Position numbers and translations under genes: made by a program. The notes beneath the pieces are model-generated. The model had not been told where the DNA came from and did no database searches. It saw nothing but the letters and a program-made list of their open reading frames with translations. Below are positions 6,516-52,212 of a stretch of 64,000 nucleotides of DNA, piece after piece (position 1 is the stretch's first letter; every line of letters begins with the position of its first letter). The stretch comes from an uncultured bacterium. Its GTDB lineage: Bacteria; Patescibacteriota; Minisyncoccia; Phycocordibacterales; CAWITU01. The stretch is from NCBI GenBank assembly GCA_963839205.1, contig CAWITU010000005.1, positions 2,121-66,120 of the forward strand, in the 5' to 3' direction.

Positions 6516-8283
6516 TTATTCAATTATTGCTTTAATTCGGCGGACCCCAGCGGAGACGGCCTCTTCTTTCACAATTTTAAAATGCCCGATCTCAGAAGTA
6601 TTTTTCACATGGGGTCCGCCGCAGAATTCCTGACTAAAAATTCCAGTCTTCTCATCCCCCACTGTATAAACTTTTACAATATCCCCATACTTTTCACCAA
6701 AAGCATGCACCGCTCCAGTATTTTCAGCTTCTTCAATTGGCAATTCCTTATATGAAACAGGCAGTGCTTCTTGTATTTTTTGATTCACCAAATCTTCCAC
6801 TTTTTTCTTTTCCTCATCAGTCATCTTGGCCGAGTGTGTAAAATCAAAACGCATTCTTTCTGATGTAATGTTGCTTCCCTTTTGTCCAACATGTTCACCT
6901 AATACTTGCTTAAGCGCAGCATTGAGTAAGTGAGTAGCGGTGTGATATCTAACGGACATCTCGCTAGTATCGGCAAGCCCCCCTTTGAATTTCTTTTCTG
7001 AACCAGTTCTAGAAAGTTCCTGATGCTTTTTGAATTCTTCATCAAAAACTTTTGTATCAACCTTAACTCCTTTTTCTTTAGCTAACTCAATCGTAAGGTC
7101 AATTGGAAAGCCATAGCTTGAAAATAATAGAAATGCTTCTTGACCCGTAATATCTTTCCCACTTATTTTCTCAAATTCTTTTACACCATGAGAGAGAGTC
7201 TTTCTAAATCTTTCTTCTTCATCGCTAATTTCTTTAATAATTGAAGCCGATTTAGTTTTGAATTTTGGATAGACTTCAAGATATTTATCTATGATTGTCT
7301 CGGCAAGAATAGAAATTGAGCCATATTTCATTTTTAAAATATCTGTATATCTAACAGCCCTGCGGATTAATCGACGCAGGACATAACCTTGGTCGGTATT
7401 TGAAGGTAAGACTCCATCACCAATAAGAAAAACTGCGGTTCGAATATGATCTGCAATAATTCTAATTGATTTCCCATCGGGCCTTATCGGAAAGTGTTTT
7501 TATCTTTTCTATAATTGGTTCAAAAATATCCGTCTCAAAAACACTTTTCTTTTTCTGAATAACAGCACACATTCTTTCAAAGCCTGCCCCCGTATCAACA
7601 TTTTTGTTTTTTAACTTTCCAACAACTTTTCCATCTTTCTTCTCAAACTCCATAAAGACATCATTCCAAATTTCAACAACCTTTTGTTCATCATCAGCTT
7701 TAATATATTCATCTAGAGTAAGATCTCCCAAACCTTCTTCGGTCACGTCATAAAACATTTCAGTATCAGCACCACATGGACCATTATCTCCAACGCTCCA
7801 CCAATTCTTACTTGCAGGTCTGTAATAAATTCTATTCTCAGGAATATATTTTTTCCAAATAGAAGCTGACTCATCATCACGAGGAGCATTTTCATCTCCT
7901 TCAAAAACTGAAACATATAATCTTTTTGGATCAAGACCAAAACCTTCATCTTTTGAGGTTAAAAGTTCATAACTCCATTTAATGGCATCTTCTTTAAAAT
8001 AATCACCAAGAGACCAGTTCCCCATCATTTCAAAAAAAGTTAAGTGGGTATTATCACCAACTTCGTCAATGTCATTTGTACGAACACATTTTTGAATATC
8101 AACAAGTCGATTACCAAGTGGATGTTTCTCACCCAATAGATATGGCACAAGAGGCTGCATTCCGGCAGTATTAAAAAGAACAGTTGGATCATTCTCCGGC
8201 ACTAGAGATGCCGAAGGAATTACGGCATGACCGCGCTTTTTGAAAAATTCTAGAAATCTACTCCTTATTTCGTTTGATGTCAT
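6516..8283 (-). pseudogene. alaS: Alanyl-tRNA synthetase, short form without a C-Ala domain, split by one frameshift
   Basis: - The N-terminal fragment is 7462-8283 (FNTAGMQPLVPYLLG).
- The C-terminal frame is open from about 7499 and reads SIRIIADHIRTAVFLIGDGVLPSNTDQGYVLRRLIRRA..HTATHLL..CGGPH.
- The frame change must lie within 7465-7499, which contains short ccc/ggg/aaaaa runs. Confidence 0.9.
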
Positions 8284-8300
8284 AGAGTAAATTACTATAA

Positions 8301-8681
8301 CTAATATCCGCTTAAATTCAAATCAGAGTTAAGACTGTTCTGAGTTGATTGAATAAAATCCTGAGTCCAGACAACCGCTAACCAAATCGTGACAAGCGTA
8401 GATAAGATAAGAAGTGTCCAGGCAATAATCCCAATATTTTTGGCTTTTGGATCCTCGGATTGATAGTAAGCAACCCCTTTCCATCGAGTCACAAAAAGAA
8501 AGCAGATTATTGGAAGAATTATACTAAAAGCATAAAGCTCAATTTGAGTTGCAATTGATGTAGAAAGTGGAGCTGGATGTAGATTGTGTCCACAATTTGG
8601 GCAAAAATAATACTCCGGCCGAACTGGCTGGTGACATGTCGGACAATTAAGAAAATTTAGGTTCGATGGATCCTCTATCAC
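8301..8681 (-). CDS. Zinc-ribbon membrane protein (hypothetical)
   Basis: The ORF has an N-terminal CPTCHQPV..FCPNCGHNL zinc ribbon followed by 2-3 TM helices, and a GTG start. Confidence 0.6.
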   Translation of the reverse strand: MIEDPSNLNFLNCPTCHQPVRPEYYFCPNCGHNLHPAPLSTSIATQIELYAFSIILPIICFLFVTRWKGVAYYQSEDPKAKNIGIIAWTLLILSTLVTIWLAVVWTQDFIQSTQNSLNSDLNLSGY

Positions 8682-8730
8682 CTACCCATTCTATCAAAAT
8701 GATTACATTTAGCTAATAGAATATATAAGA

Positions 8731-9240
8731 TTATTTTCCATCATAGGCTCTCTGTAAACCATCTATATCAATCTTAGTCATTTGAAGCATGGCCGCCATA
8801 ACTCTATTTGCTTTTTCCTCATTAGGATCACTCATTAGTTCGCTCAAAGCATCTGGAACAATTTGCCAAGTGACGCCGAACTTATCTCTATTGATCCAAC
8901 CGCACTGGCCTGTCTCGCCGCCTTCCCCTAATTTTTCCCAAAAATAATCAACTTCAGCTTGAGTTTTACAATCAACAAGAAATGAAATGGCTCCACTAAA
9001 TTTAAAATGTGGACCACCATTTAATGCAGTGAATTCTTGTCCTTCCAATTGGAAGTGAACTATCATTACTGACCCCTTTGGTTTACCTGATGCATTTTCG
9101 CTAGATTCGTAATAGCGATTAATTGTACTGACCGTTGATTCAATCTGCCGGCCAGGATTATTGTTAAAAATATCTACATAATAATTTACTGCTTCTTCTG
9201 CTTGTGAATCAAACCACAAAAATGGAGTAATTTTTTGCAT
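8731..9240 (-). CDS. VOC/glyoxalase-superfamily protein (PhnB / 3-demethylubiquinone-9 3-methyltransferase-domain type)
   Basis: MQKITPFLWFDSQAEEAVNYYVDIF...ALNGGPHFKFSGAISF...FGVTWQIVP is typical of this family. Confidence 0.75.
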   Translation of the reverse strand: MQKITPFLWFDSQAEEAVNYYVDIFNNNPGRQIESTVSTINRYYESSENASGKPKGSVMIVHFQLEGQEFTALNGGPHFKFSGAISFLVDCKTQAEVDYFWEKLGEGGETGQCGWINRDKFGVTWQIVPDALSELMSDPNEEKANRVMAAMLQMTKIDIDGLQRAYDGK

Positions 9241-9244
9241 ATAT

Positions 9245-10823: not shown

Positions 10824-11969
10824 TTAAGGAAGAATCGCTTTGAAGGCCGCAAGTGAAGCTGAGTCTGTATCAACTAACCAATCTTGGTCACTGTTTGAAT
10901 TAAAATATACCCAGCCAGCGAGATTAGGGACAGTTTTTACATAAGCTCCAAATTGAGTCATCCAAGTTGCTTTCTGTGTTCCTGGAATTGATCCTGTTGA
11001 AAGGATTAATAGAGGTTTGTTGAAAGTCTCTAATTGAGTTATCGCAGAACTAAATATTTGAGTTGGTGTTTCCCATGGATTTCCGAAATTAAACCCATCG
11101 ACAGAAACGTAGTCAACGTAAGCGGCACCAGGATAGTAAGCGGCGAATGAATTGTCAGAGGTGCTTGGTACTGGGACGTTGTTGTAATCAAGTGCAAACT
11201 TTACATTAGTTGCTCCTGCGGCTACGAATAGATCGTGAATGTGTTTCCAGGCTGTTACGAAACTCGCGGCGGTGTTACCATTCTGTCCGTATCCCCAAGC
11301 ATTCTCATTGAGGTTAAACTCATCGAATGGTGCGAGGATAACTGGATAGCCGTAGGCTTTAGCACCTTGTGCAAACTGAGTGATGTAAGCATCTTCTGAA
11401 CCACTATTAATGGTACTGAAACCAAAACTTGGCTCCCAGAAAATTGCTAATGTTTTTCCTTGTGAACCAACTGTGCTACTAAACTGTGAAGGGAAACTTG
11501 CATCCCATCCTTCAAAGTCAGCTTGTATGTTTGCTTGAGCACCAACTTCGCTTTCAAAACTTGTAAGTGACGACGTTACGTAAGCTCCCCACTGCATTGT
11601 GGATGGGGTCGTTGATACCGGTGTTGGAGTTGGAATCGGAACTACTGCGGGTGTTGGAGTTGTGATTGCTACGGGTGCAGGGACTGGTATTGGTGTTACT
11701 ACAGGAATCGGAGCCGGGGTTGGGGTGGTAATTACTGCAGGTGTAGGTGTGGTTGTTGTTACCGGTACAGGTGTTGGAGTTACGGTTGTTTGACTTGAAC
11801 GTGAACTATAGGTCCAAACGTTATGGCTAACATTGTGACTAGAACTGCTTGAATAGCTCCAACTATTTCTCGACTGGGCACTAGCAACAGGTGTAATAAT
11901 GGCTAAAACTGGGGTTACTACTAATAAAAGGCTAATAATTAATGAACTAACTTTTTTGTATTTTTTCAT
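10824..11969 (-). CDS. Secreted glycoside-hydrolase-like protein (GH26-like, tentative) with a Pro/Thr linker
   Basis: The ORF has a signal peptide (MKKYKKVSSLIISLLLVVTPVLA), a PT-rich linker, then WGAYV..FEGWDASFP..IFWEP..ILAPFDEFNLNENAWGYG, which resembles GH26 mannanase motifs. ATG is at 11967-11969. Confidence 0.5.
   Translation of the reverse strand: MKKYKKVSSLIISLLLVVTPVLAIITPVASAQSRNSWSYSSSSSHNVSHNVWTYSSRSSQTTVTPTPVPVTTTTPTPAVITTPTPAPIPVVTPIPVPAPVAITTPTPAVVPIPTPTPVSTTPSTMQWGAYVTSSLTSFESEVGAQANIQADFEGWDASFPSQFSSTVGSQGKTLAIFWEPSFGFSTINSGSEDAYITQFAQGAKAYGYPVILAPFDEFNLNENAWGYGQNGNTAASFVTAWKHIHDLFVAAGATNVKFALDYNNVPVPSTSDNSFAAYYPGAAYVDYVSVDGFNFGNPWETPTQIFSSAITQLETFNKPLLILSTGSIPGTQKATWMTQFGAYVKTVPNLAGWVYFNSNSDQDWLVDTDSASLAAFKAILP
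11598..11789 (-). repeat. Low-complexity Pro/Thr/Val linker-coding repeat
   Basis: This stretch encodes TVTPTPVPVTTTTPTPAVITTPTPAPIPVVTPIPVPAPVAITTPTPAVVPIPTPTPVSTTPS. It generates a spurious antisense ORF at 11599-11793. Confidence 0.85.
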
Positions 11970-12055
11970 ACAGGAAAAGCGTAGCAGACCCACATGTGTA
12001 ATGGAATATCATTTGAAACGTCACCATAACCTTTTGGGTTGCACAATGATTTTGA

Positions 12056-12081
12056 TATAAAAAAGTCCCCTTTTGGGGACT
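12056..12081 (-). terminator. Intrinsic terminator
   Basis: The hairpin agtcccc-tttt-ggggact (12064-12081) is followed on the minus strand by TTTTTTAT. It lies downstream of the 12215-13549 gene. Confidence 0.6.
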
Positions 12082-12214
12082 ATATTTTACTATAGATATT
12101 TATTGAGTATCAATGTCCAATTTTTTGGACCCTTGCATTCGAAACCATGATGCCAAAGTAACCGCCAGTCGACCGAACTGGCGGTTATCTTTTATCTACT
12201 ATTAATTCTAGTAA

Positions 12215-13549
12215 TTAATGATGCTTACCTTGACTATTCCCCCCGCCACGATCATTGAAGGCAACTCCCCAGGCGGTACTGCTACTATTTCCTCCGCCAT
12301 TATTTTTTCCATCGTTGCCCTTACCATTATCATGACCGTTATTGTTGTGACCATTATTATGGTCGTTGTTGTCCTTGTCCTTGTCTTTATTTCCGTTACC
12401 ATTGCCAGTCGACTTTGCAATATCACCAAAGTTTGTGCTACTTGCAGTAATGCCACCGCTAATTACTACCGAACTATAGTCGCTAGTGAATTGCTGGAAA
12501 CCGCTAGATGGATTTTTAAGTTCCTCCACACTATAGGTTCCGTCAGCTAAACTATTGAATGAGTAATTACCATTTGAGTCACTTACCATGGTTGCAAGCG
12601 GTCCATCGCCGTTACTTCTCCCTGGAAAATTTGCACCAGTGTAAAGATTGATTGTCCAACCAGCTAAGCCTGGCTCACCCGAATCGAGCGTTCCATTTTT
12701 ATTCTGATCGTTGTAAACCGTTCCACTAATCGCTCCTACCCCTGAAGTTGTTGTACCGGTTGACGTACCTGTTATCGCTAATGATTCACAAGTTGAACTA
12801 GACGAAGCGTACACTGAGTCACCATTGTAATGAGCCAAGAATGACAGCCCAGAACTTGGTACTGTTGTAGTAGCCGTTGTAACTGTTCCGTTAACTAACG
12901 GCACACCGAAATCTGTAGCGCTACTTGGAGCCAAACATGTTGTGTTTGGAAACATTGTGAAGTCAACATTGCCAGTTGGTGTGGTTGTTGAAGTACTTGA
13001 TCCTGAAGTGACCGTTGCTTGATCCCAAACATCTGAGCCAGCTGCAACAGAAGTTGTTGCGTTTAGATTTGAATCAAGAATGGTTGTGGCGATCGAAGAT
13101 GGCACCGTACTAGTTGGAGCTGCTATAGCTGTCAAAGGTTCACAAGGTGAACTTGATGAAGCATAGAGTGTGTCTCCATTATATTGGGCCATGAACGATA
13201 AGCCTGTGCTTGGGACTGTTGCTGTTGACGATGTTGCAGATCCATTAACGAGCGCTACTCCAGATTGGGTAGTGCTTGTCGCTGAACATGATGTGTTTGG
13301 AAACATCATGAAATCTACATTACCTGTTGGTGTAGTTGTAGAAGTGCTTGAAGCCGAAGTTACTGTAACCGTATCACTTACAGTTGCGCCCACCATGGCT
13401 GATGTCGTTGCATTTAGATTTGAATCAAGAATGGTTGTCGCAACCGACGCTGGAAAAGTTTGTGCACCCGCAACCAAAGATCCAGCGAACAGAGTCGCTA
13501 TTGCTATGGGTAAGACTAGCAAATAGTAAGAATATTTTTGTGCTTTCAT
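12215..13549 (-). CDS. Secreted repeat protein: two Ig-like repeats, an SdrD-B/Cna-B-like domain and an N/G/H/D/K-rich tail
   Basis: - A signal peptide is present (MKAQKYSYYLLVLPIAIATLFAGSLVAGA).
- Two 117-aa repeats begin with ATTILDSNLNATTS.
- GTVYNDQNKNGTLDSGEPGLAGWTINLY is SdrD-B-like.
- The tail reads GNGNGNKDKDKDNNDHNNGHNNNGHDNGKGNDGKNNGGGN. Confidence 0.7.
   Translation of the reverse strand: MKAQKYSYYLLVLPIAIATLFAGSLVAGAQTFPASVATTILDSNLNATTSAMVGATVSDTVTVTSASSTSTTTPTGNVDFMMFPNTSCSATSTTQSGVALVNGSATSSTATVPSTGLSFMAQYNGDTLYASSSSPCEPLTAIAAPTSTVPSSIATTILDSNLNATTSVAAGSDVWDQATVTSGSSTSTTTPTGNVDFTMFPNTTCLAPSSATDFGVPLVNGTVTTATTTVPSSGLSFLAHYNGDSVYASSSSTCESLAITGTSTGTTTSGVGAISGTVYNDQNKNGTLDSGEPGLAGWTINLYTGANFPGRSNGDGPLATMVSDSNGNYSFNSLADGTYSVEELKNPSSGFQQFTSDYSSVVISGGITASSTNFGDIAKSTGNGNGNKDKDKDNNDHNNGHNNNGHDNGKGNDGKNNGGGNSSSTAWGVAFNDRGGGNSQGKHH
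12750..13450 (-). repeat. Tandem 351-bp intragenic duplication (two Ig-like modules)
   Basis: Repeat starts are at about 13441 and 13090. The nucleotide blocks gcatttagatttgaatcaagaatggttgt (about 13410) and gcgtttagatttgaatcaagaatggttgt (about 13060) are near-identical. Confidence 0.8.
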
Positions 13550-13747
13550 ATTTTTATTTTTACTAACTGAAGCTAGACTTGATAATAAAGTGATATTCAA
13601 TAGAATATTCGACCTCCACTTTACAGACCATATCGACCACTATTTAAAAATTAATTAAAAGCGTATAAGGAAAGCCTGCAAGCTCCAGACGTCCGAATTA
13701 TGCCCTTATTACATACAAAATTTTGAGATTTAGTGTCCTATTTTTTA

Positions 13748-19913: not shown

Positions 19914-20617
19914 TCAATAGTCATTTAAATGATAAACCACATCCTTTCTTTCAACGACAATCTCCCATTTGTGGGCTTCGGCGTATTGGTAAAGTTTTTT
20001 ATTAGGATTAAAACAGATAGGTCTTTTAACAAATTTTAAAAACGGAATATCGCTTTCTGAGTCCCCAACTCCGACAGAATCAACAAGCGACAAATTCTCT
20101 TTTTCAACTGCACGTTTTAGTATCTTGGCTTTGTCCGAAATAAGGTCAAGATACAAAGTCCCACCGGTAAATTTACCATTCTGATTAGTTTCATATATTC
20201 GTCCGTAAACTTTACTAAATCCCCAGCCTTTACAAAATTCATCAAGAATTTCTTTGGGAGAGTGCGAGATAGCCAAGATATAATAATTCTTCTTTTTTAA
20301 TTCCTTAATCAAATCACGAGTGTATCTATAAACATGATTCTGATGAAGATCAATAACTTTTCTGAAACTCTTATAAACTCATTATGCGAAACTCCCTTAA
20401 TATTTTCTTCAAAGGCATGAACAACTGCCATAATATATTTTTCGTACGAATCATTACGATTAAGCCAGGCTTCATAAGCCTCTGAATAAATATCTCTGAC
20501 TTTATACGGGAATATGTCTTCCTTGATGAGCTCGTTCACAACCTCAACCAAAAGGCTTGAACGAAATATCGTTCCGTCTATATCAAATATCGCTACTTTT
20601 TTGGGGGTGTCTGACAT
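19914..20617 (-). pseudogene. HAD-IB family hydrolase (SerB-like), split by one frameshift
   Basis: - The N-terminal fragment (20309-20617) contains VAIFDIDGTIF.
- The C-terminal frame, open from about 20378, reads VIDLHQNHVYRYTRDLIKELKKKNYYILAISHSP...GVGDSESDIPFL.
- Adding one base to the T4 run at 20358-20361 restores a single frame. Confidence 0.75.
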
Positions 20618-20645
20618 TAGACATATTTTACCACCAATTCAGATA

Positions 20646-21584
20646 CTATTCCCAACTAAACCCTCGTCCATGATGGCCCCAGGTGCAGGTATCGGCAAAT
20701 TTAACTTGGTCTAGCTTTAGAAATTCACGAATACCTCTTGGAGAAAGGTCATACAGGCCAGTAATATCTTCTTCCTTACCATCAATGACAGCCACGGCCA
20801 TGACCGGTTCCTTCTTTTCCAATAGCATAGGCAAGTTTAGTAAACACTGTTTTAGCTTTACGTTCCTTTAGTAAATCAACAGCAATTATTCGAGCAATGT
20901 AGGCACCAGATCGATCTACCTTTGTATAATCTTTCCCAGAAAAGCACCACCGCCTATAGGTATCTCCGGCCCATAATTATCCACCACCAGTTTCCTCCCA
21001 GAAAGATCCTGAGTCGGCATCAAAGCCACCTTGAGTCCATTCACCAGCAGGATTGATTAAATATTCTTCAGCACCAATGACACTTTGGACTAGATGGCAG
21101 TAAATCTTTATTTTTTGATTTTGAAAACTTGCCACCACTGTAGTTACTTTTCCATCTTCAATAGTAACTTGGGTCTTTCCATCATATGGATACACTTCAA
21201 ATATTTTCTGACAAAGTTACGAGCCAAAACATATTCAAGCGGTAAATATTCTGAGCGTCTCACTCTGTCGCATAGCCTTTCATGATTCCTTGATCACCCG
21301 CTCCACCTATATCAACACCTTGAGCAATTTCAGGACTTTGGAGAGCAATGTTAATGATGATCTTATAATCCTGTACCAACAATGGATTTAACGATGCTTC
21401 AATATCTGGTTTTGCCTTTGAAGTCACTTCCCCATTAATTGTTACCAAATTATGCCCACCCTGAACTTCTACTGCCACCCGACTTTTATTATCACCTGCC
21501 AAATACGCATCAAGATAGTATCTGCGATAAATCACATATTTTATCTGGATGCTTAGGACTAACAAATTCTGCTGTCTTTATCAT
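20646..21584 (-). pseudogene. metK: S-adenosylmethionine synthetase, fragmented by at least 5 frame changes
   Basis: MetK motifs are spread over several frames: [81 protein letters not shown] and C-terminal DTCTWGHHGRGFSWE. ATG is at 21582-21584. Confidence 0.85.
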
Positions 21585-21591
21585 TTTTTAT

Positions 21592-21616
21592 AAAAAAAAT
21601 TCCTCATAAAGAGGAA
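21592..21616 (-). terminator. Riboswitch expression-platform terminator
   Basis: On the minus strand the hairpin uuccuc-uuuau-gaggaa is followed by U8. Its upstream flank AUCUUUCC is complementary to GGAAAGAU in the 3' side of aptamer P1, giving an antiterminator. Confidence 0.55.
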
Positions 21617-21639
21617 AGATTTTTTGCGCGGACTAGACG

Positions 21640-21752
21640 CAACATATCTTTCCTGATAGTACACCGTACTATCGGTTGGATTTAGCACCTTACATTTGTA
21701 GGTTGCCGGTGGGTCCTTGAGCCAATGCTCTCGCCACTCTCTTGATAACTGA
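21640..21752 (-). promoter_or_regulatory. SAM-I (S-box) riboswitch upstream of metK
   Basis: The minus strand reads GUUAUCAAGAGAGUGGCGAGAGCAUUGGCUCAAGGACCCACCGGCAACC...AAGGUGCUAAAUCCAACCGA...UCAGGAAAGAUA. This matches the S-box core (UAUCAAGAG, GGCAACC, GGUGCUAAAUCC, AGAUA). Confidence 0.8.
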
Positions 21753-21798
21753 TTATTCAGTTGTAACTACATTATACCGAAACTATAAAAATCTTCCA

Positions 21799-37161: not shown

Positions 37162-37301
37162 AATTTTCCTTATGGTAAAGATTGTATAGAGCGATAGTTC
37201 AGCCGGAATGGCAGACTATTTCTGGGTAAGTATTACCATAACGAGGCCAAAATACAAAATAAGATTGCATTTTAGGAAAATTTCACTACACTTAGAAAAC
37301 T

Positions 37302-37388
37302 GCCGGGATGGCGGAATTGGCAGACGCTCACGACTCAAAATCGTGCGAGGGCAACCTCATGGGAGTTCAAGTCTCCCTCCCGGCACCA
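37302..37388 (+). tRNA. tRNA-Leu (anticodon CAA), CCA encoded
   Basis: The sequence gccggga...cacga-cuCAAaa-ucgug has a long variable arm, the T loop guucaaguc and a 3' end ucccggcACCA. Confidence 0.88.
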
Positions 37389-37409
37389 AAATAGGATTGT
37401 ATTTTTTAT

Positions 37410-38433
37410 CTAAATAAAATTAGGTTCAGGTTGGAGTTTAATACCAAACTGTTTTTTAACCGTTTCAATTATTTCATCTTTCGCGCTTTGAAGTTCAGCG
37501 AAGGTAGCTTTGCCGTTATTAGTTAAGACCAAAGCATTTTTGTCGTAGACAGAGATGTTACCAAAACTCTTGCCTTTAAGGCCGGCTTTCTCTATCAGAA
37601 AGCCGGCGGAAATTTTGAGACCTTTTTCGGTTTCAAAAAGAGGGAAACCAAGTGAGGCGGCGCGAAGCGCCGCCTCACTTCCCTTTTCCAAAATCGGATT
37701 CTTAAAAAAGGACCCAACGTTTGGTGATTTAACAGGGTCAGGAAGTTTACTCAACCTAATACCAACAATCGCATCTCTAATTTGAAGCAATGTTGGATTT
37801 TCAATTTCTAGATCAATAAAATATTTCTTAACATCTGCATACTCAGGTATTTTCGGCAGATTTTTAGAAAGTTTTAAACTAACTGAAGTAATAATGTACT
37901 TCCCTTTTTCCTTTCCATTAAAAATACTTGAACGGTAAGCAAACTGACAATCAGCATTTGAAAGATTTTCAAATTTACCACTCTGTAAGTTAAAACATTC
38001 AACACTAACCAAAGTATTTTTAATTTCTGATCCATATGCGCCGATATTCTGGACAGGAGCTGCACCGACTGTTCCAGGAATTGCAGACAGTGCTTCTAAA
38101 CCAGAAAAGCCACGTGTAACGGATTGTAGAACTACATCATCCCAATTTTCTCCGGCTCCAACTTTTATAATTACTCCATCATTTTTATCTTCAATAATTT
38201 CAAATCCAAGAATATTTATTTTAAGCATCAAGCACATCGTGAAGTTGATCAGAAAAAATGGAGTTAGTTCCTTTTCCTAAAGGTAAAATTGAAACTTTTT
38301 TTTCTTTAGAAAATTCTAGGGCTTCAACAAGATCTGATGATTCATTAATTACTGCCAAAAAACGTGCAGGGCCTCCCATTTTGAACGAGACCAAAGGGGC
38401 AATTAAAGCATTTTCTTGAACGACAATTTTCAT
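37410..38433 (-). pseudogene. murB: UDP-N-acetylenolpyruvoylglucosamine reductase, split by one frameshift
   Basis: The N-terminal fragment (38221-38433) contains FKMGGPARFL..LPLGKGTNSIFSD. The C-terminal fragment (37410-38237) contains VGAGENWDDVV..IPGTVGAAPVQNIGAYG..GSFFKNP. The junction is near 38225-38260, which includes a t6 run. Confidence 0.88.
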
Positions 38434-38474
38434 GCGCTTGGAAGTATAGCATGTGAAGATTATAATAGACCCCT

Positions 38475-39779
38475 ATGTCTTTAAATTTCAAAATAGAGGG
38501 CGGTCATAAGCTTTCGGGCTCAATATCCACCAACACCTCAAAGAATGGCGCCTTGGGCCTTTTTTGCGCTTCTCTAATCAATAAAAGCCCTACAATTCTT
38601 CACGGAATCCCTAAAATCGAGGAGATCCACCGCATAACCGAAATCTTCCAAAGTATCGGCGTTAAGGTTGAGTGGATTGATAAATCTTCAGTCAGAATTA
38701 CTCCGCCAAAGAAATTTAAATTAGAAAATATTAAACCAGAGATTGCTGGGAAAGTTAGATCAATTCTTATGACTATCGGAGCCCTAATTCATCATGAGAA
38801 AAAGTTTAAAATTCCAAACGCTGGTGGTTGCAAAATGGGAGAACGCTCAATTGCTGCCCATCGTTTTGGACTTGAAAAGTTTGGAGTAAAAATAGTTACC
38901 AAAGAAAAATATTATGACATTTCAGCACCTAAGCTTCATGGAGCAGAAATAACAATGTACGAAGCTAGTGACACTGCTACCGAAAATCTTTTAATTGCAG
39001 CTTCCTTGATTCCAGAAAAAACTACAATCTACTTTGCTCCACCAAATTATCAAGTTCAGGAAGTTTGTTTTTTCCTTGAGAAACTTGGCGTCAAAATTGA
39101 TGGAATCGGAACGACAACTTTAGTAATACACGGACTTAAAAATATTGACACACCAGTTGAATATGAAAATAGTGAGGATCCAATTGAATCAATGATGTTT
39201 ATTTCAGCGGCAATTGTCACCAAATCAACTTTGCTCGTAAAACGTTGCCCAATTGATTTCTTAAGACTAGAACTTTTGAAATTGGAAAAAATGGGTTTGA
39301 AATATTCGGTTTCAAAATCATACGAAGCTAAAAATGGTCAAACTAAGTTAGTTGATATTTTAGTTAAGCCTTCAAATCTGAAAGCCCCATATGACAAAAT
39401 TCACGCTCAACCATATCCTGGTATTAATGCTGACAATCTTCCCTTCTTCGTCCCTATAGCTACTCAAGCAAATGGCACAACCATGATTCACGATTGGATG
39501 TGGGAAAATCGTGCAATTTATTTTACGGAATTAAATAGATTGGGAGCCAACATAACTTTGGCTGATCCTCATCGAGCTTTTATTCAAGGCCCGACAGAAC
39601 TCAAGGGCGCCGAGATTGTTTGCCCTCCAGCTTTAAGACCCGCAATGATTATTATGATTGCCATGCTTTCTGCTAAAGGTACTTCAATTTTAAGAAATGT
39701 TTATTCTATAAATCGCGGATATGAAGATATCGCCAAAAGACTCAATTCAATCGGAGCCAAAATCAAAGTCCTTGGATAA
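38475..39779 (+). CDS. murA: UDP-N-acetylglucosamine 1-carboxyvinyltransferase
   Basis: This 434-aa ORF is intact and contains KNGALGLFCASLI, the GGCKMGERSIAAH active-site Cys loop, and a C-terminal YSINRGYEDIAKRL. Confidence 0.93.
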   Translation: MSLNFKIEGGHKLSGSISTNTSKNGALGLFCASLINKSPTILHGIPKIEEIHRITEIFQSIGVKVEWIDKSSVRITPPKKFKLENIKPEIAGKVRSILMTIGALIHHEKKFKIPNAGGCKMGERSIAAHRFGLEKFGVKIVTKEKYYDISAPKLHGAEITMYEASDTATENLLIAASLIPEKTTIYFAPPNYQVQEVCFFLEKLGVKIDGIGTTTLVIHGLKNIDTPVEYENSEDPIESMMFISAAIVTKSTLLVKRCPIDFLRLELLKLEKMGLKYSVSKSYEAKNGQTKLVDILVKPSNLKAPYDKIHAQPYPGINADNLPFFVPIATQANGTTMIHDWMWENRAIYFTELNRLGANITLADPHRAFIQGPTELKGAEIVCPPALRPAMIIMIAMLSAKGTSILRNVYSINRGYEDIAKRLNSIGAKIKVLG

Positions 39780-40662
39780 AGCAATCGTTATCTTGGGCCC
39801 CACTGCATCTGGAAAAAGTGCGCTGGCTATTAGCTATTGCCAAGAAATTTAATGGAGAGATTATTTCTGCTGATTCCAGACAAGTTTATAGAGGATTAAA
39901 TATTGGAACGGGGAAAGTTACGAAGAAAGAGATGGGTGGCGTGCGACATCATCTATTAGATGTCGCACGCCCACAAACTAGATTTAACGCGGATACCTAC
40001 AAGACACTAGCTGAAAAAGTACTAAAAGAAATAAGACAAAGAAACAAGGTTCCAATCATTTGCGGAGGTACAGGTTTTTATATTAAATCATTAGTAGATC
40101 AGATTACTTTCCCAAATGTTGAGCCTAATTTGGAACTTAGAAAAAAATTAGAGAAGAAATCAGCTGTCGAGCTTTTTGGAATGCTCAAAAAGCTCGACGC
40201 AAAAAGATCCAAAACAATCGACAAGAATAATCCTATTCGATTAATTAGAGCAATTGAGATTGCTAAAGCGCTTGGCAAAAATCCTAAAATTGCGAAACAG
40301 CCAAACTCATTTAGGTTTTTACAAATTAGGTTTAAAAGTTGATTCTGAAAAATTAAAAGAACTTATTCAAAAGCGACTTACTGATAGATTTAAAATTGGA
40401 ATGCTTCAAGGAAGCTACTCGACTTCATAAAAATGGTTTGTCTTGGAAGCGAATGGAGGAACTAGGACTTGAATACAGATACATGGCGTTGTTTCTACAA
40501 AACAAAATTATCAAAGAAGAGATGCTCTCAAAACTAAATATTGAAATTTGGCATTATGCTAAGCGCCAAATGACTTGGTTTAACAAAGACCAGAGAATCG
40601 TCTGGTTTTCACCAAAAGACAAAACGAAAATTATTTCTACTATTTCATCTTTTATAAAATAA
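39721..40662 (+). pseudogene. miaA: tRNA dimethylallyltransferase with three frameshifts
   Basis: Pieces occur in successive frames: ILGPTASGKSALAI (from ATG 39721, overlapping the murA end), IAKKFNGEIISADSRQVYRGLNIGTGK, IGLKVDSEKLKELIQKRL and ATRLHKNGLSWKRMEELGLEYRY..YAKRQMTWF. Confidence 0.88.
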
Positions 40663-40691
40663 AATAGCGCTCTCAAGTAAATTGAGAGCGC
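40655..40691 (-). terminator. Hairpin terminator between the convergent miaA and lipoprotein genes
   Basis: The hairpin gcgctctcaa-gtaaa-ttgagagcgc spans 40667-40691, with a U-rich tail on the minus strand. Confidence 0.7.
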
Positions 40692-40717
40692 GTAACAGAT
40701 TCTAGCAAATCGAAGGA

Positions 40718-41221
40718 TTATTTCTTTTTGTCCTTCCTATTGTTATTTCCATTATTTCCACCACCGTTGTTGTGGTTCGAGGATCTTTGATTATTCCCCC
40801 TAACCGCGGCGGCGTGATAATTTTGACCGGAGGAAGCATGATAACTCTGACGGCCAGAACCTTGGTGGTAATATTGTCGCCCGGCATTGGCCATGCGGTA
40901 CTGATGGAAATTCGCATGATACCGATTGTAATCACCACGATAGATCCGCTCGTGAACCCATGTGCCACCGTCCCAAACGTTCACAATGCAGGTTGGACCT
41001 TCGTCAAGGACGAGGAAACCATCATCTGCCGCGACGAGATACGAATCATCAGTTACGACATTCGCATACGGATCGTAGTAGGTATAGGTTGGATACCCAG
41101 TTAAACCAGCCCCGAGTCCCTCTGCCAATCCCGAGACGAATGCATTGGCCATTCCAGCACAGCCTGTAAGCGACGCCACGACAGCGACCATTACCAAACT
41201 AACTAATATATTTTTTATCAT
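40718..41221 (-). CDS. Lipoprotein with an N/G/H/Q-rich basic tail (GC-rich cassette)
   Basis: The signal peptide and lipobox are MIKNILVSLVMVAVVASLTGC. The tail reads NNQRSSNHNNGGGNNGNNNRKDKKK. Antisense ORFs at 40702-41169 are artefacts. Confidence 0.65.
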   Translation of the reverse strand: MIKNILVSLVMVAVVASLTGCAGMANAFVSGLAEGLGAGLTGYPTYTYYDPYANVVTDDSYLVAADDGFLVLDEGPTCIVNVWDGGTWVHERIYRGDYNRYHANFHQYRMANAGRQYYHQGSGRQSYHASSGQNYHAAAVRGNNQRSSNHNNGGGNNGNNNRKDKKK

Positions 41222-41353
41222 TTAGGCCTCCTTTGGCCAGTTTTGTTTTGTTCTTGTTCTAGTCATTTGAGAAATTACTTCCTCAACCTCATTTTTTATA
41301 CTACAACATATTTCAAATATTACAATAGTCGGGTATGTACATTAATTTTTAAT

Positions 41354-41388
41354 AAAAAAAGCAGCGCTACCTTGGGTTGGTAGCGCTG
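41354..41388 (-). terminator. Intrinsic terminator
   Basis: The hairpin cagcgctacc-ttgggtt-ggtagcgctg spans 41362-41388, with U7 on the minus strand. Confidence 0.75.
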
Positions 41389-41414
41389 TTTGAAACCATT
41401 ACGATGCGAATCGC

Positions 41415-41838
41415 CTAGGCGACTTCTCCACTTGCTGGCTTGTGCCGAATTGAGGAGGTCAGTCCGAGGTCTTTGCTTACCTTGTCATGAAGCACCTGGT
41501 AACGCTCCAAAAGCTCTTGATTTTCTGCAATAGCCTCGCGAGGCCTTGTTGATCAGAATTGGCTCAACAAAGTCCGTATTCTGAAGATAATCGATTTTAG
41601 CTTTAAGCGTTTCGATCTCCGCAGTGACAGCCCGTAGTAATCCTTTCAAATCGCGACTCCGTTTCGACTTTGGGAAAAGTCCGTCCCAACAGCAGTAGAT
41701 GTAGAACGGTACATTGAGGAGCATAAATCCAATTGAGAGGTACTTTGACCACGGGTACGTCAGTGTGTACTTACAAACGAGACTTGCAACCAGAATCAGC
41801 ACCAAGCCCAAACAGATTTTCAGAAATGACATCTTCAT
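41415..41838 (-). pseudogene. Hypothetical membrane and coiled-coil protein, probably split by one frameshift
   Basis: The track ORF (41485-41838) has 2 TM helices and AEIETLKAKIDYLQ. A stop-free continuation in another frame, REAIAENQELLERYQVLHDKVSKDLG, runs to the stop at 41415. Confidence 0.45.
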
Positions 41839-41960
41839 GAAGCCACCTTTCCTTTAAATGTTGTCCGAATATCGTCGGAGTGCGAAGTCAAAACCTCGAG
41901 TGACAAGGAACAAAGACCGACATATTGATAACACAAAACCGATGCTAAGTCAATATTTCG

Positions 41961-42478
41961 TTATGCCTCAATACCAGAACTTTTTTGTTTAGAAATATCA
42001 AATCGGACAACTTCGTATTCTCGCCAAATAAACCACATTACTATTAGATCAAAAAAGTAAGCAAAATTAAAAGCCAGGAAAACGTCGTGATAATTTGATA
42101 AATCTGGTAAATCATAAATCCTCCGAGAACAATTAAAGAGGCTGGGTATGCCCACAGTTGTTTTTTAAACAGGGCGACTATGAGAGCAAATTTAATGAAT
42201 CCCCTACTAAAAAGATAGATAGCAATAAAGGTTCCGCTGGAAAAAGACAATTGAGTAGCCAAATGTACTAGATTAGTCGCAATAAAGTCCCCAGGCTCTT
42301 CAATCAATTCTGCTTGTGCCCATGGAATAAATATATTTGTTATGACAGTGATTGGAATAAATAAAGCTAAAACTCCTGCCACCATTTCTGCAAAAGAAAT
42401 TATTCCTTTAATAATAATGCTTATATAAAAATACTCTGTAATTCTTTTCTCTTGTTTTGGTGTAAATGTTATTTCCAT
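41961..42478 (-). pseudogene. DUF2127-like membrane protein, split by one frameshift
   Basis: The ORF at 42044-42478 ends in LLILLTFLI*. The next frame continues with FDLIVMWFIWREYEVV. Adding one base to the A6/T6 run at 42051-42056 restores LTFFDLIV. Confidence 0.6.
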
Positions 42479-43985: not shown

Positions 43986-46677
43986 CTATCTCAACATCTG
44001 CTCAGGCGTCCTAATATGTTTTATAGGAGACTTCTTTTCTTTGCGAACATCAAAGACACATTCACCATTTTTAATATCAACCATAACTGACCCTCCAGAA
44101 ATGACACCATGGGCAATCATCATCGAAGCCACCGGAGTTAGAATCTTAGTCTGAATGAGGCGTCTGAGTGGTCTTGCACCGTATTGAGGATTGTAGCCCT
44201 CTTTGGATAGGTAAGAGAGAAGTTCTGGAGAAACTTCCAGCGAAATTTCTTTGAGTGCTAATCGCTTCTTAATTAATTCAATTTGTAGATTAACGATTTG
44301 TCTTATGCTGTCTTCACTCAAAATATCGAAGACAATTATTTCGTCTAGTCGGTTGAGAAATTCTGGACGGAAATTTTCTTTAAGAGAGGTCAGGACATTT
44401 TCTTTGGCGTTACTATAATCATCCTTCTTATTATCTGAGGTGTGGAAGCCAATTCTCTCCATCTTATCGATATATTGTGCACCAACATTTGAGGTCATGA
44501 TAATAATGGTGTTCTTGAAGTTAACTACTCTACCCTTTGAATCTGTAAGTCTTCCATTATCAAGAACCTGAAGAAGAATGTTAAATACTTCAGGATGAGC
44601 CTTTTCAATTTCATCAAATAGAATTACTGAATATGGGCGATGTCGAACAGTGTCAACGAGATTTCCACCTTCATCAAAACCAACATATCCTGGAGGAGCT
44701 CCGATAATTTTTGACACAGCATGTCTTTCCATGAATTCGGACATATCAACTCTTATCAGCGCTTTCTCGTCATCAAACATAAATTCAGCAAGAGCTCGAG
44801 TCAGTTCAGTTTTACCGACGCCTGTTGGGCCTAGGAACATAAATGAACCAATTGGCCTGTCAGGGTCAGAAACACCAGCACGTGAACGTTTAACTGCATC
44901 AGCGACCTTCTGTAGAGCTGCCTCCTGACCAATAACTCTCTTTCTGAGCTCTTCTTCTATACGTGCAATCTTGCTTATTTCTTCTTCCAACATTCTAGAA
45001 ACTGGAACACCAGTCCATTTTGCAACAACTTCAGCAATATCATTCTCTGTAATTTCTTCCTTTAGAATTCGACGAGAGCTTTGAAGTTTCTTAAGCTTTT
45101 TATTTTTAGTTTCTAAATCTTTTTCTAATCCAGGAATTCTGCCGTAACGAATTTCCGCAGCCTTTGAAAGATCTGCACGGTTCTCGGCTGACTCAGCTTC
45201 AAGACGTGACGATTCCAAATTCTTTTTTATTTCCTTAATACTTGTAAGTATCCCCTTCTCATTTTTCCATTTAAGTTCAATCTCGGATGTTTTTTCTTTG
45301 AGGTCTGCAATTTCTTTTTCAATTTCTTTAATACGTCCCTTAGTAGTTTTTGAGTCCTTGGTACTTTCTGGTTCGTTCTTTAGAGCTTCCTTCTCAATCT
45401 CAAGTCTCATAATCTTTCTATGAGCATCTTCAAGAACTGGAGGCTTATTCTCAAGTGAAATTTTAAGAAACGATGCCGACTCATCCATTAGGTCAACTGC
45501 TTTATCTGGCAAAAATCTATCAGTGATATATCTAGTAGAAAGATTAACTGCTGCCACAATTGCGTCATCAGTAATACGAACACCGTGATAGAGCTCATAT
45601 TTTTCCTTAAGCCCTCGAAGAATTGCGACAGCATCTTCGATTGAGGGTTCATTAACAAATACTGGCTGGAATCTTCGCGTAAGAGCTGGGTCCTTTTCAA
45701 TATGTTTTTGATATTCACGAAGTGTAGTAGCTCCAATAGCTCGAAGATCTCCACGAGAAAGTGCAGGCTTTAACATGTTTGAAGCATCAAGAGAACCTTC
45801 AGCGGCGCCAGCCCCAACAATTGTATGAATTTCATCAATGAAGAGAATCACTTTGCCATCAGACTTTTCAATTTCTTTCAAAATATTTTTTAAGTCGCTC
45901 TTCAAATTCTCCACGGTATTTTGTTCCAGCTACAAGAGAACCCAAATCAAGAGAAACTAGTTCCTTATCTTTAAGCGACTCAGGAACATCACCAATAGAC
46001 ATTCTATTGGCCAATCCTTCAATAATTGCAGTTTTACCAACACCAGCTTCCCCAATCAAAATTGGATTATTTTTGGTTCGGCGAGAAAGTATTTGAATTA
46101 TTCGACTAATTTCCATATCACGACCAATGACTGGATCTAGTTTATTATCGCGGGCTAATTGAGTTAGATTTCTAGTAAATTTATTAAGCGCTTTAAATTT
46201 TTTTGGAACAGCACTTTCTGATGTCTTACTACTTTTTAATTCTTCAAGAACTCTAATGACATCCGTTCTATTTATTTTAAAACGAGTGAGCACGTCTCTT
46301 GCTGGACTCGCAATATCAATACAAGCAATAAAAAGATGTTCGGTTGAAACAAATTCATCTTTCATACCAATTGCAATCTTGGCGGAGTTTTCAATTATCG
46401 AAGCAAGTTCTGGTGTTAAATAAAGTTGGTACGAAGGAGCAACAGTTGAAGAAGCTCCTGGAGCTTCAATTTCTTCAAGGAGAGAATCTGTTAAGAGAAT
46501 TGTATCTACATCTAATTTTTCTAATATTGAAAGTACAATACTTTCTTCCTGTGACATGAGTGCAGTTAGAAGATGGAGTGGGTTTACGTGATTTTGACCA
46601 CGCTCAATAGCATATTCGTGGGCCTTTCTAATGACTTCTTTTGCTTTTGTTGTGAAATGTCCAAATGGAGGTGGCAT
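43986..46677 (-). pseudogene. clpB: ClpB-type AAA+ chaperone, split by one frameshift
   Basis: The N-terminal fragment (45868-46677) contains Clp_N repeats and [11 protein letters not shown]. The C-terminal fragment (43986-45914) contains [19 protein letters not shown] and GARPLRR. Removing one base from the T6 run at 45886-45891 gives [17 protein letters not shown] in one frame. Confidence 0.92.
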
Positions 46678-49768: not shown

Positions 49769-49840
49769 GGCGTGGTAGCCAAGTGGTAAGGCAAAGATCT
49801 GCAAAATCTTTATACGCCGGTTCAATTCCGGCCCACGCCT
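49769..49840 (+). tRNA. tRNA-Cys (anticodon GCA)
   Basis: The acceptor is ggcgugg/ccacgcc, the anticodon arm is aagau-cuGCAaa-aucuu, and the T arm is gccgg-uucaauu-ccggc. Confidence 0.88.
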
Positions 49841-49881
49841 CCCTTCGGTAGGGCAAAATCTTGGCGAAGGTGTCTTCACAA

Positions 49882-49963
49882 GCCCGAGTGGTGGAATTGG
49901 TATACACGCACGACTTAAAATCGTGTCTCGCAAGGGATGTGGGTTCGATTCCCACCTCGGGCA
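49882..49963 (+). tRNA. tRNA-Leu (anticodon UAA)
   Basis: The acceptor is gcccgag/cucgggc, the anticodon arm is cacga-cuUAAaa-ucgug, a long variable arm is present, and the T loop is guucgauuc. Confidence 0.88.
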
Positions 49964-49990
49964 CAAAGCTTATTCGTTTATTATTTTAAA

Positions 49991-50063
49991 CCGCCCATAG
50001 CTCAGTTGGTAGAGCAGTTGCCTCTTAAGCAAACGGTCGCAGGTTCAATTCCTGCTGGGCGGA
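49991..50063 (+). tRNA. tRNA-Lys (anticodon CUU) with a C1-G72 acceptor end
   Basis: The acceptor is ccgccca/ugggcgg, the D arm is gcuc-aguugguagagc, the anticodon loop is cuCUUaa, and the T arm is gcagg-uucaauu-ccugc. Confidence 0.85.
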
Positions 50064-50086
50064 CTCGGTATAGAAATTTAGAAAAT

Positions 50087-50168
50087 GCGCGGGTGGCGAA
50101 ATTGGCAGACGCACTAGCCTTAGGAGCTAGCGGAGCAATCCATGGAGGTTCAAGTCCTCTCCCGCGCA
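50087..50168 (+). tRNA. tRNA-Leu (anticodon UAG)
   Basis: The acceptor is gcgcggg/cccgcgc, the anticodon arm is cuagc-cuUAGga-gcuag, a long variable arm is present, and the T loop is guucaaguc. Confidence 0.88.
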
Positions 50169-50173
50169 CAACG

Positions 50174-50929
50174 TTAGTTTATCTTTTTGATTTTACCTTG
50201 ATTGATTACAGCTTGAATTGCGGCTTTCAATTCTTCTGGGCCAGCAAGGAAATATCTTTTTGTTAGTCTCAATTGTTGGTCTAATTCACAAACAAGCGGT
50301 ATTCCAGTTGGAAATTCAAATTTAACAATATCTGCTTCAGGCATATCTTCAATATGTTTTAGAAGTGCGCGCAAACTATTTCCAGAGGCAGCAACAATCA
50401 CACTCTTTCCATTTTTAATTTGCGGAGCAATATCACTTAGCCAATACGGCACCACACGCTCAACAACCATTTTAAGATTTTCCCAAAGTGGTATTTCTGA
50501 TTCATTCAAATCGGCATACAGCGGATCTTTTCCAGGATACATATCACTATCTTTAGCGAGCGGAGGAATCGGCACATCATAACCACGCCTCCAGATTTGA
50601 ACTTGGTCTTCTCCATACTTTGCTGCTGTTTCAGATTTATTCAAACCTTGAAGAGCACCGTAGTGTCTCTCATTTAGTTTCCACGATTTGTGAATTTCAA
50701 TATTCTGCTCTCCCATATCCTCAAGAATCAAATCTAAGGTTCTATAAGCTCTTTTTAAAACTGAAGTAAAAGCCACGTCAAAAGCAAAACCATTTTCTGC
50801 TAATTTACTAGCTGCGAGCCGTGCTTCGCCAACACCTTTGTCAGTAAGATCCACATCAACCCAGCCAGTAAATCTATTTTCTTTATTCCAAACACTTTCT
50901 CCGTGACGAATTAAAACTATTTTATACAT
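50174..50929 (-). CDS. gpmA: 2,3-bisphosphoglycerate-dependent phosphoglycerate mutase
   Basis: The translation MYKIVLIRHGESVWNKENRFTGWVDVDLTDKG...LNERHYGALQG supports the call. Confidence 0.95.
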   Translation of the reverse strand: MYKIVLIRHGESVWNKENRFTGWVDVDLTDKGVGEARLAASKLAENGFAFDVAFTSVLKRAYRTLDLILEDMGEQNIEIHKSWKLNERHYGALQGLNKSETAAKYGEDQVQIWRRGYDVPIPPLAKDSDMYPGKDPLYADLNESEIPLWENLKMVVERVVPYWLSDIAPQIKNGKSVIVAASGNSLRALLKHIEDMPEADIVKFEFPTGIPLVCELDQQLRLTKRYFLAGPEELKAAIQAVINQGKIKKIN

Positions 50930-50992
50930 TTTGATATTAATTTATCCATAAATCATAACACAGAAAGGGATTGGGCTCGTTTATTTTACCCT

Positions 50993-51019
50993 TGCTTTTC
51001 TCAGGTTTTGTGATATAAT
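50993..51019 (+). promoter_or_regulatory. Candidate sigma70-type promoter with an extended -10
   Basis: The -35 is TTGCTT (50993-98) and the -10 is TGaTATAAT (51011-19), about 70 nt upstream of an AGGAG RBS and the ATG at 51092. Confidence 0.4.
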
Positions 51020-51091
51020 TCGCCCAAACCAAAGTTCTCACGTTTAAGCTCGTGCTTTGTACGTTAGGTCTTTGAAAACTAGGAGATAATT

Positions 51092-52212
51092 ATGATTCTG
51101 ATAGCGTTATTGGTTTTGGTTGTTTTTGGCTTAAGTGCCTTAATCTTTATTTGGGGGATTAGTTTTCACGGCGTTTTCTTTGCCCGTGAGAAATCTGAAA
51201 GGATTATGACAGTCGATCTTGCTGGTGTTTTCACTGGCCGACTGCTGTTGCCCTCCACAATGAGTCAGATCGTTGGTCACAAGATTGTTACGGGCAGTCC
51301 GCGGGCAAACACAGGGGTTAAGCCACGGCGCTCTATCAAATTTTATCTTCTCCCTTACAGGAGCGAGATGGATTGGATTAGCGCCAAAGCGTTCTCCACT
51401 ACTCAAAAGAGACTCTCACCCGATTGGAAAATGGGGTGATTGTTGAAGAGCTAATCTGGACGCCTTATTTATTCACGGCGCCAGTTGAACATTTCTTTTC
51501 TCTTTCAGAAGTTGAAGATGCGGACGGCAACCCAGTAGATCTTACGGCCTCATTTTTCGCCCATCCGGTTGACTTCTATATCCCTTTGTATAGAAATACG
51601 GGGTATATGGAGCGCTCCGGGCGATGGTCGGTACGGCTTTAATTATGCGTGTCCGACAATTTCAGTTTGTGGTTAATAAGGGGAGTTGGTGTTGTGTACC
51701 AACCCCATGACCGCATGATTATTCACGACCTCATCAACAAGGAAGTGCTGAGAGACAATCCCAGGGAGCTCAGGGATGAGACCGAGAGTAAACTGGGTTT
51801 CGATGTTGATAGACTTAACATTTGGCAAATTGCCCTGGCAGGTGTAGACAAGGCCGCAATTGTTAAGGCTCAGGGAGATATGACGATTGAGACTCTTAAT
51901 GCTCAAATTGCCAAAACGAAAGCGGAAGGTCAGCTGCAGCTACAGTAATTGGAGCTGAAGCTCAAGCCACGAAAATTGAAAAGGAAGGTGCTGCATCTGC
52001 CAAGGTCATCAAGGTCACGGGAGAAGCTGAGGCCGCTGCTATCACAGCAAAAGCAACAGCTTATTCCAAGCCAGGTGGTGACAAAATTTGTCAGTGTCGA
52101 CCGAGTGAAGGCACTCGGCGGAAAAGTCGTGGTATACGGAGGCAACTCAATGCCAATGATAAACCTTGGCGAAACCGAAGACAGTGACAAAAAACAAGGA
52201 AGTGCAAAATGA
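51092..52212 (+). pseudogene. SPFH/band-7 (flotillin-like) membrane protein, fragmented by at least 3 frameshifts (GC-rich cassette)
   Basis: The N-terminal TM helix is MILIALLVLVVFGLSALIFIWG. Later frames give RLNIWQIALAGVDKAAIVKAQ and IGAEAQATKIEKEGAASAKVIKVTGEAEAAAITAKATAY, an Ala/Glu-rich SPFH C-terminal region. The domain call is tentative. Confidence 0.45.

Follow-up and report, generated by a model that had tools for sequence, protein, structure and literature searches.

Single-base frame changes clustered in a 64-kb stretch of an uncultured Patescibacteriota genome very probably reflect consensus errors in the deposited assembly

The question raised by this stretch of DNA is why so many of its genes change reading frame partway along their length. 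The window, by which we mean the whole stretch of 64,000 nucleotides (nt) that was analysed, is taken from contig CAWITU010000005.1 (positions 2,121 to 66,120 of the forward strand; assembly GCA_963839205.1) of an uncultured bacterium of the Patescibacteriota, and its guanine-plus-cytosine content (GC) is 0.39. A preliminary description of the window had counted about 30 frame changes in about 15 genes. The genes that it listed do change frame, but the count was low: we found at least 46 net ±1 changes across 16 genes. Judged by the signatures set out below, these are very probably consensus errors in the deposited assembly and not mutations of the organism, and there seems to be only a slight chance that the insertions and deletions (indels) are real in the organism's DNA. 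Beneath the frame changes the genes are whole and of an ordinary housekeeping kind, and among those affected alaS, serS, metK and murB are single-copy essentials at their native locus.

Frame changes were sought by comparison with relatives. The protein set consisted of all stop-to-stop open reading frames (ORFs) from 80 related loci, each taken as ±10 kilobases (kb) around topA; the window was compared with this set by blastx and then with a purpose-written protein-to-DNA aligner that allows frame shifts. Orthologues of dus, the ftsQ-like gene, serS, dprA, miaA and clpB were found near topA (within 10 kb) in many of these loci. A site was accepted if at least half of 5–16 orthologues put the shift within 10 nt. 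For localisation, every one-base edit within about ±12 nt was tried, and the edits within 2 points of the best summed alignment gain were kept. The reference for metK was a set of 120 close homologues (P0121–P0240), and its sites were aligned against 16 MetK orthologues within P0121–P0160; these homologues replaced a solved-structure search with the three-frame metK translation, which had confirmed the frame order and whose matches were too distant for site placement. For the SPFH-like gene the reference was P0242 alone, obtained by exhaustive search. Genes without orthologues in the set were judged by ORF structure and by Pfam coordinates before and after repair.

By this procedure, 33 sites were backed by at least half of the 5–16 orthologues per gene (HAD 1, metK 11, dus 1, ftsQ-like 9, serS 4, dprA 3, miaA 3, clpB 1). 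The sites outside this set were placed by ORF structure, Pfam continuity or a single homologue; those placed by ORF structure or Pfam belong to the methyltransferase gene (1), the restriction-enzyme-like ORF (1), purC-purE (2), murB (1), the DUF2127 gene (1) and the 41.5-kb ORF (1). A surplus base is present at about 24 sites and a base is missing at about 22, every event being net ±1. None of the orthologues compared (5–120 per gene) has a shift at the listed positions. Under the same test, with 5–16 orthologues each, five intact genes (topA, 26946–28118, 34633–35622, 38475–39779 and 53242–54409) gave 0 sites, which indicates that the aligner does not invent shifts. The affected genes are as follows, with lengths in amino acids (aa) where given.

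alaS (588-aa AlaRS), 6519–8283, minus strand: one extra base at about 7464–7472, isolated and outside the patches described below.
HAD-family hydrolase gene, 19917–20617, minus strand: one missing base at 20358, adjoining the T4 run at 20358–20361 (5 of 5 orthologues).
metK, 20649–21582, minus strand: 11 single-base changes (14–16 of 16 orthologues per site), with missing bases at 21532, 21515, 21396, 21214, 21116 and 20944 and extra bases at 21374, about 21254–21265, 21094, 21006 and 20817.
N4/N6 DNA methyltransferase gene, 21960–22710, minus strand: one extra base at about 22541–22545 (feasible range 22462–22664), the ORF frame passing from f0 to f2.
Restriction-enzyme-like ORF, 22721–23354, minus strand: one extra base within 22848–22897 (about 22870–22880), placed by ORF structure only (f2 to f1).
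dus (putative tRNA-dihydrouridine synthase-like gene, a label taken from the preliminary description), 28278–29264, minus strand: one missing base at 28836–28843 (16 of 16 orthologues).
ftsQ-like gene, 29328–30150, minus strand: nine changes (4–7 of 7 orthologues per site), with missing bases at 29967, 29908, 29891, about 29803 (where the direction varies between runs), 29722–29732 and 29521 and extra bases at 29703, 29666–29671 and 29411.
serS, 30154–31440, minus strand: four changes (12–16 of 16 orthologues), with extra bases at 31265–31267, 30761 and 30351–30356 and a missing base at 30810–30813.
dprA, 31490–32365, plus strand: three changes (16 of 16 orthologues), with missing bases at 31690 and 31839–31848 and an extra base at 32027–32033.
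purC-purE fusion, 35680–37158, minus strand: two changes, both within purE, with an extra base at about 36132–36137 and a missing base at about 35910–35930 (ORF frames f0, f2, f0).
murB, 37413–38433, minus strand: one extra base at about 38231–38235 (feasible range 38224–38276; ORF frames f0 to f2).
miaA, 39756–40659, plus strand: three extra bases, at 39833–39835, 40326–40328 and 40408–40411 (14–16 of 16 orthologues).
Small membrane-protein ORF (the 41.5-kb ORF), 41418–41838, minus strand: a probable extra base within 41488–41552, placed by ORF structure only (f0 to f2).
DUF2127 membrane-protein gene, 41964–42478, minus strand: one missing base, for which the A6 run at 42051–42056 is the best position (ORF frames f1 to f2).
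clpB, 43989–46677, minus strand: one extra base within 45886–45895 (the T6 run or an adjacent base), isolated (7 of 7 orthologues).
SPFH-like gene, 51092–52212, plus strand: at least five changes, with missing bases at 51608 and 51932, extra bases at 51681 and 52095, these four being seen against P0242, and at least one more change in the N-terminal part, 51240–51450.

Both frameshift-aware alignment and Pfam showed the same orthologue or Pfam model continuing on the two sides of the breaks. The repaired AlaRS, HAD, MetK, methyltransferase, PurC-PurE, MurB and DUF2127 proteins each gave one continuous, higher-scoring Pfam match over their junctions. Thus, the alaS fragments match positions 1–260 and 270–437 of tRNA-synt_2c, and the repaired protein matches it as a single 1–437 stretch (466.6 bits); this junction is also spanned by one orthologue alignment. 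In the methyltransferase, the N6_N4_Mtase match rose from 56.2 to 77.0 bits on repair; in PurC-PurE, the AIRC match grew from positions 10–76 (34.9 bits, in the fragment) to 2–99 (55.9 bits) over both junctions; and in MurB, FAD_binding_4 was extended from 56–137 (45.3 bits) to 8–137 (71.1 bits). All three MetK domains match in the repaired protein. Two of the sites that the preliminary description had localised are in good agreement with ours: the missing base in the HAD gene, after repair of which the Pfam HAD match covers 1–189 of 189, and that in the DUF2127 gene, where the repair gives LTFFDLIV and the match lengthens from 4–127 (67.1 bits) to 4–140 of 140 (86.7 bits). Its clpB site was likewise recovered, the T6 run being one of several equally good repairs.

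Some details required revision. For alaS we found a single break and not several; the ORFs at 8301–8681 and 8731–9240 are separate genes, coding for a zinc-ribbon membrane protein and a 3-dmu-9_3-mt family protein. Extra pairs of shifts that appeared in alaS at a lowered frameshift penalty came from one orthologue only and were treated as noise. ORF pairs at 13.8–14.3 and 16.9–17.8 kb, considered as further breaks, have the appearance of separate genes, and no Pfam family is split between them. The labels SPFH, ftsQ-like and PD-ExK, retained here as names, find no Pfam counterpart: neither the SPFH-like nor the ftsQ-like protein matched Pfam even when repaired, and the restriction-enzyme-like ORF (22721–23354, "PD-ExK") did not match before or after repair. 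The 41.5-kb ORF has neither homologue nor Pfam support. The ftsQ-like gene has recognisable pieces in all three frames, and its count of changes is uncertain by one or two because the orthologue identity is low (33%). For the SPFH-like gene, a chimeric query gave no match at E ≤ 1e-5 in a word-indexed search for homologues, and an exhaustive search of 1.84 billion representative proteins returned its own fragment and P0242, a distant protein of 264 aa (46% identical). The fragment, P0241, is an 84-aa piece of the SPFH-like gene catalogued publicly from the same contig.

Certain changes occur as compensated pairs (metK 21396/21374 and 21116/21094, serS 30810/30761, SPFH-like 51608/51681), which leave a short out-of-frame stretch in an unbroken ORF and were seen inside patches only. 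An in-frame stop of the SPFH-like gene (51640–51642) lies inside the out-of-frame stretch of the pair 51608/51681, and no in-frame stop is left in any repaired gene.

Apart from the indels, the broken genes look like their intact neighbours. After 11 one-base repairs, made roughly, MetK has 309 aa against 311 in relatives and, along its full length, shares 79% identity with P0121; this identity to the nearest relative is about that of intact topA (32464–34629) to its own, which is 78% in a collection of 5.8 billion proteins, where the one identical match to topA comes from a single contig of 67,933 nt. Among species representatives, the best matches of topA are uncultured Patescibacteria/Paceibacteria at no more than 74% identity. 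At near-invariant columns (at least 97% conserved among orthologues), mismatches in the repaired genes numbered 2 of 158 in metK (not counting placeholders at junctions or residues within compensated pairs), 2 of 62 in dus, 1 of 71 in serS, 0 of 35 in dprA and 0 of 43 in miaA. The intact controls gave 1 of 259 (topA), 2 of 59 (26946–28118) and 0 of 66 (34633–35622). The aberrant-looking residues at conserved MetK columns fall exactly within the compensated pairs. Essential genes hit by indels without substitutions, at conserved positions, point to consensus error and not to gene decay.

Several features of these proteins were recorded besides the frame changes. MetK has about 311 aa in nearly all 120 relatives, against about 385 aa for the bacterial enzymes of solved structure that were matched, and its N-terminal and central Pfam domains are covered only partly. 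AlaRS, at 588 aa, matches 437 of the 552 positions of the catalytic Pfam model and then tRNA_SAD, with no long C-terminal extension. In 35680–37158 (minus strand), purC and purE are apparently fused in one frame (SAICAR_synt followed by AIRC); the codon-usage score there is far below that of the neighbours (0.07 per codon) and the local GC is higher, about 0.42, and the region may be of foreign origin. Directly upstream of metK lies one further element.

SAM-I riboswitch in the metK leader, 21641–21751, minus strand: Rfam RF00162, scoring 50.2 bits where the gathering threshold is 44.4; not a frame change.

Several terminal P1 pairs of this riboswitch are non-canonical, and its modest score could itself reflect indel errors, given its location in patch A. 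Its retention beside metK accords with a gene at its native locus.

The second line of evidence is the distribution of the sites. Clustering of the breaks, already described in the preliminary account, was borne out by a heterogeneity test over the 14 genes assessable by orthologues (χ2 = 94.6, permutation P < 5e-6). Four patches, given here without strand, hold all but two of the sites.

Patch A, 20358–22880: 14 sites in 2.5 kb.
Patch B, 28836–32033: 17 sites in 3.2 kb.
Patch C, sparser, 35910–42056: nine sites in 6.1 kb.
Patch D, 51240–52100: at least five sites in about 0.9 kb.

Density inside the patches is 1.5–12 per kb, reaching 11–12 per kb in metK and the ftsQ-like gene. Outside them there are two sites in about 51 kb (alaS at about 7470 and clpB at about 45890), so that the contrast between patches and the rest of the window exceeds 100-fold. 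The stretches on either side of patch A (7.5–20.3 kb and 23.3–28.8 kb) have unbroken ORFs; the neighbours of patch B, 26946–28118 and topA, have 0 sites with 16 orthologues each; and even within patch C the ORF at 38475–39779 (putative murA) has 0 sites with seven orthologues. Essential and accessory genes are hit alike within the patches, and none is hit between them. Of the long genes that had been named as spared, topA is thus free of sites as claimed and gyrA is an unbroken ORF; infB had two orthologues only, one of which aligned with a single shift at 47895, right where the gene begins, and this we treated as noise.

The third line of evidence is the sequence context. Runs of at least 4 were touched by 8 of the 34 localised sites against 5.4 expected (P = 0.15), and runs of at least 5 by 6 of 34 against 1.6 expected (P = 0.003). 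The general rule of the preliminary description, that the changes lie at short homopolymers, therefore does not hold, only runs of at least 5 being enriched; the three sites that it had localised belong to the run-compatible minority. At the 17 extra-base sites, compatible runs averaged 2.24 in length against a null of 2.35, and seven of these sites can be repaired only by removing a non-repeated base (serS 31265–31267 and 30761, miaA 39833–39835, metK 21374, 21254 and 21006, and ftsQ-like 29411). Runs at the sites are mostly 1–3 long, with a maximum of 8. The longest mononucleotide run in the window, a single T9, is away from every site. No motif, such as a methylation motif, was enriched at the sites; the best 3-mer, CAG/CTG, had a raw P of 0.003 and was not significant once corrected. 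A/T runs of 5–8 are about 30–45% rarer in the window than in 29 GC-matched related loci (about 1.5–1.8 standard deviations lower), a deficit that could stem from the composition of the lineage or from a sequencing method that mildly compresses runs.

We suggest that the assembly was a hybrid or long-read one and that a low-depth long-read consensus was kept in a few stretches, either because short-read or extra-depth polishing missed them or because they are long-read gap fill between short-read contigs. Most of the contig would then be accurate, with errors in four stretches of about 1–6 kb and two strays, and gene callers would fragment each affected gene. Stretches of low-depth consensus would account for the alternation of dense and flawless regions, the balanced ±1 spectrum, the mostly non-repeat context, the modest excess of long runs and the two strays. 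Nanopore errors are dominated by indels, which inflate pseudogene counts in metagenome-assembled genomes, most severely at low coverage (PMC8103633); many bacterial "pseudogenes" are assembly artefacts that vary with platform, assembler and coverage (PMC11017572). As in long-read (nanopore or PacBio continuous long read) or hybrid metagenome-assembled genomes, the indels here are single-base, split conserved genes and can be mended by aligning the sequence, with frame shifts allowed, to homologous proteins. The window differs from such genomes in that its changes are gathered in discrete patches of strong contrast and not evenly spread, and in that their spectrum is balanced and mostly non-homopolymer.

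Several points weigh against consensus error as the explanation. The artefact is read from signatures in the sequence, and the cause that we give for the patchiness is a guess. Nor does a spectrum this even, with most sites outside homopolymers, have the signature that textbooks give for modern nanopore data after polishing. Dense and clean regions show no obvious difference in composition (GC 0.398 and 0.384, with similar run spectra). No genome of the same species was found in the collections searched (species representatives and the 5.8-billion-protein set), which ruled out a base-by-base comparison.

Among the other explanations, the one that survives best keeps the frame changes as an artefact and so overlaps with low-depth consensus error, from which it is inseparable on sequence alone. 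The deposited sequence might be a collapsed consensus of co-occurring strains, the patches marking strain divergence and the mosaic bringing in spurious indels. Patchiness is expected of strain-variable regions, and patch A holds a restriction-modification pair, typically a strain-variable island. Patches B and C, however, consist of conserved core genes (dus, serS, dprA, murB, miaA), and the excess of amino-acid oddities that a mosaic consensus would also make is absent. We regard this explanation as unlikely. As to the pair itself, the methyltransferase gene and the restriction-enzyme-like ORF (21960–23354, minus strand) resemble a small restriction-modification pair, lying between metK and the operon next to it.

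Purely homopolymer-length miscalls, of the kind known from 454, Ion Torrent or nanopore compression, are favoured by the over-representation of long runs, and the clpB T6 run, the ftsQ-like A6 run at 29666–29671, metK 21117 beside a T6 run and the DUF2127 A6 run are all compatible with run-length errors. Most of the sites speak against this model: 26 of the 34 touch no run of at least 4, the extra bases sit in runs no longer than the null with many of them non-repeated, and there are as many insertions as deletions. The spectrum is a better fit to generic low-depth long-read consensus error, and homopolymer-length miscalls as the sole source seem quite improbable. The preliminary description was accordingly right to prefer a sequencing or polishing artefact to the joint loss of essential genes, but not in the homopolymer-length error model that it attached to it. 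The uneven coverage that it also invoked is plausible.

The frame changes might instead be genuine frameshifts in a decaying or dead lineage, that is, real pseudogenes that arose through reductive evolution or under relaxed selection. The lifestyles of Patescibacteria are reduced and depend on a host, and the genes are broken in the sequence as deposited; pseudogene-rich genomes are known from recently host-restricted bacteria such as Mycobacterium leprae and Sodalis, and as in those the window has many frameshift-interrupted genes in a small-genome, probably host-dependent bacterium. Genuine decay, however, mixes stops, substitutions and multi-base deletions and spares essential genes, whereas the window has only ±1 indels, with no larger deletions, strikes essential genes and shows no excess of substitutions after repair. 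In spontaneous mutation, as followed in mutation-accumulation studies, substitutions are several-fold commoner than small indels; 11 real indels in metK should therefore have been accompanied by tens of substitutions and some stops, against the two near-invariant mismatches, the lack of stops and the high identity seen. Joint loss of alaS, serS, metK and murB is not viable, and the patches follow no functional grouping of the genes and are interspersed with flawless neighbours. We consider decay very unlikely.

In a variant, the indels, dozens of them in essential genes and gathered in a few kilobase-scale patches, would be real in the Paceibacteria population and tolerated through an unknown correction at the level of RNA or translation, or else the reads would stem from a lineage that was hypermutated locally and has recently died. 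This would be remarkable if true, but the evidence of the sequence is strongly against it, and we give it very little weight.

Rescue by recoding, whether by slippage at A/T runs, by programmed ribosomal frameshifting or by an unknown insertion/deletion editing, has next to no probability in our view. Slippage rescue is known in AT-rich endosymbionts; in Buchnera and Blochmannia it takes place at long poly(A) tracts and needs runs of about 9–10 or more. The window resembles these in having frameshifted essential genes in an AT-biased reduced genome with a few sites within A6/T6 runs, but no run in the window exceeds 9, and most sites lie outside runs; the earlier judgement that slippage was the less likely course was sound. 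Programmed frameshifts such as prfB (+1) and dnaX (−1) are conserved in orthologues, occur once per gene and use a slippery motif. As in these, the ORF continues in another frame; unlike them, the genes here would need both +1 and −1 corrections, up to 11 in one mRNA, at positions where no orthologue is shifted, so that no conserved programmed site exists, and without an enriched motif. An alternative genetic code with stop reassignment, of the kind seen in some bacteria of candidate phyla, was rejected since neighbouring fragments differ in frame and table 11 leaves the long genes open; a same-frame stop occurs only at 51640, within an out-of-frame stretch.

The pattern is not a biological feature, and its meaning lies in data quality: about a quarter of the genes in the window are split in the public record. 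For this genome, automatic annotation, completeness estimates, metabolic reconstruction and pseudogene counts will be wrong; metK, serS, alaS, murB, purE and others would be annotated as missing or incomplete, and fragments such as P0241 now stand in protein databases as if they were proteins. In similar assemblies, a practical check would be to look for kilobase-scale stretches rich in frame changes between flawless ones.

Other features of the window were noted in passing. It contains eight tRNA genes, all with normal scores; four of them form a cluster at 49769–50169 (plus strand; Cys-GCA, Leu-TAA, Lys-CTT, Leu-TAG), and a tRNA-Leu gene (37302–37388) lies inside patch C. At 10827–13639 (minus strand) there are two large, low-complexity, Thr/Ser/Pro-rich, secreted-looking proteins, one of them with Big_3_5, SdrD B-like and SpaA-like domains; antisense ORFs across this region have high codon scores because of its composition.

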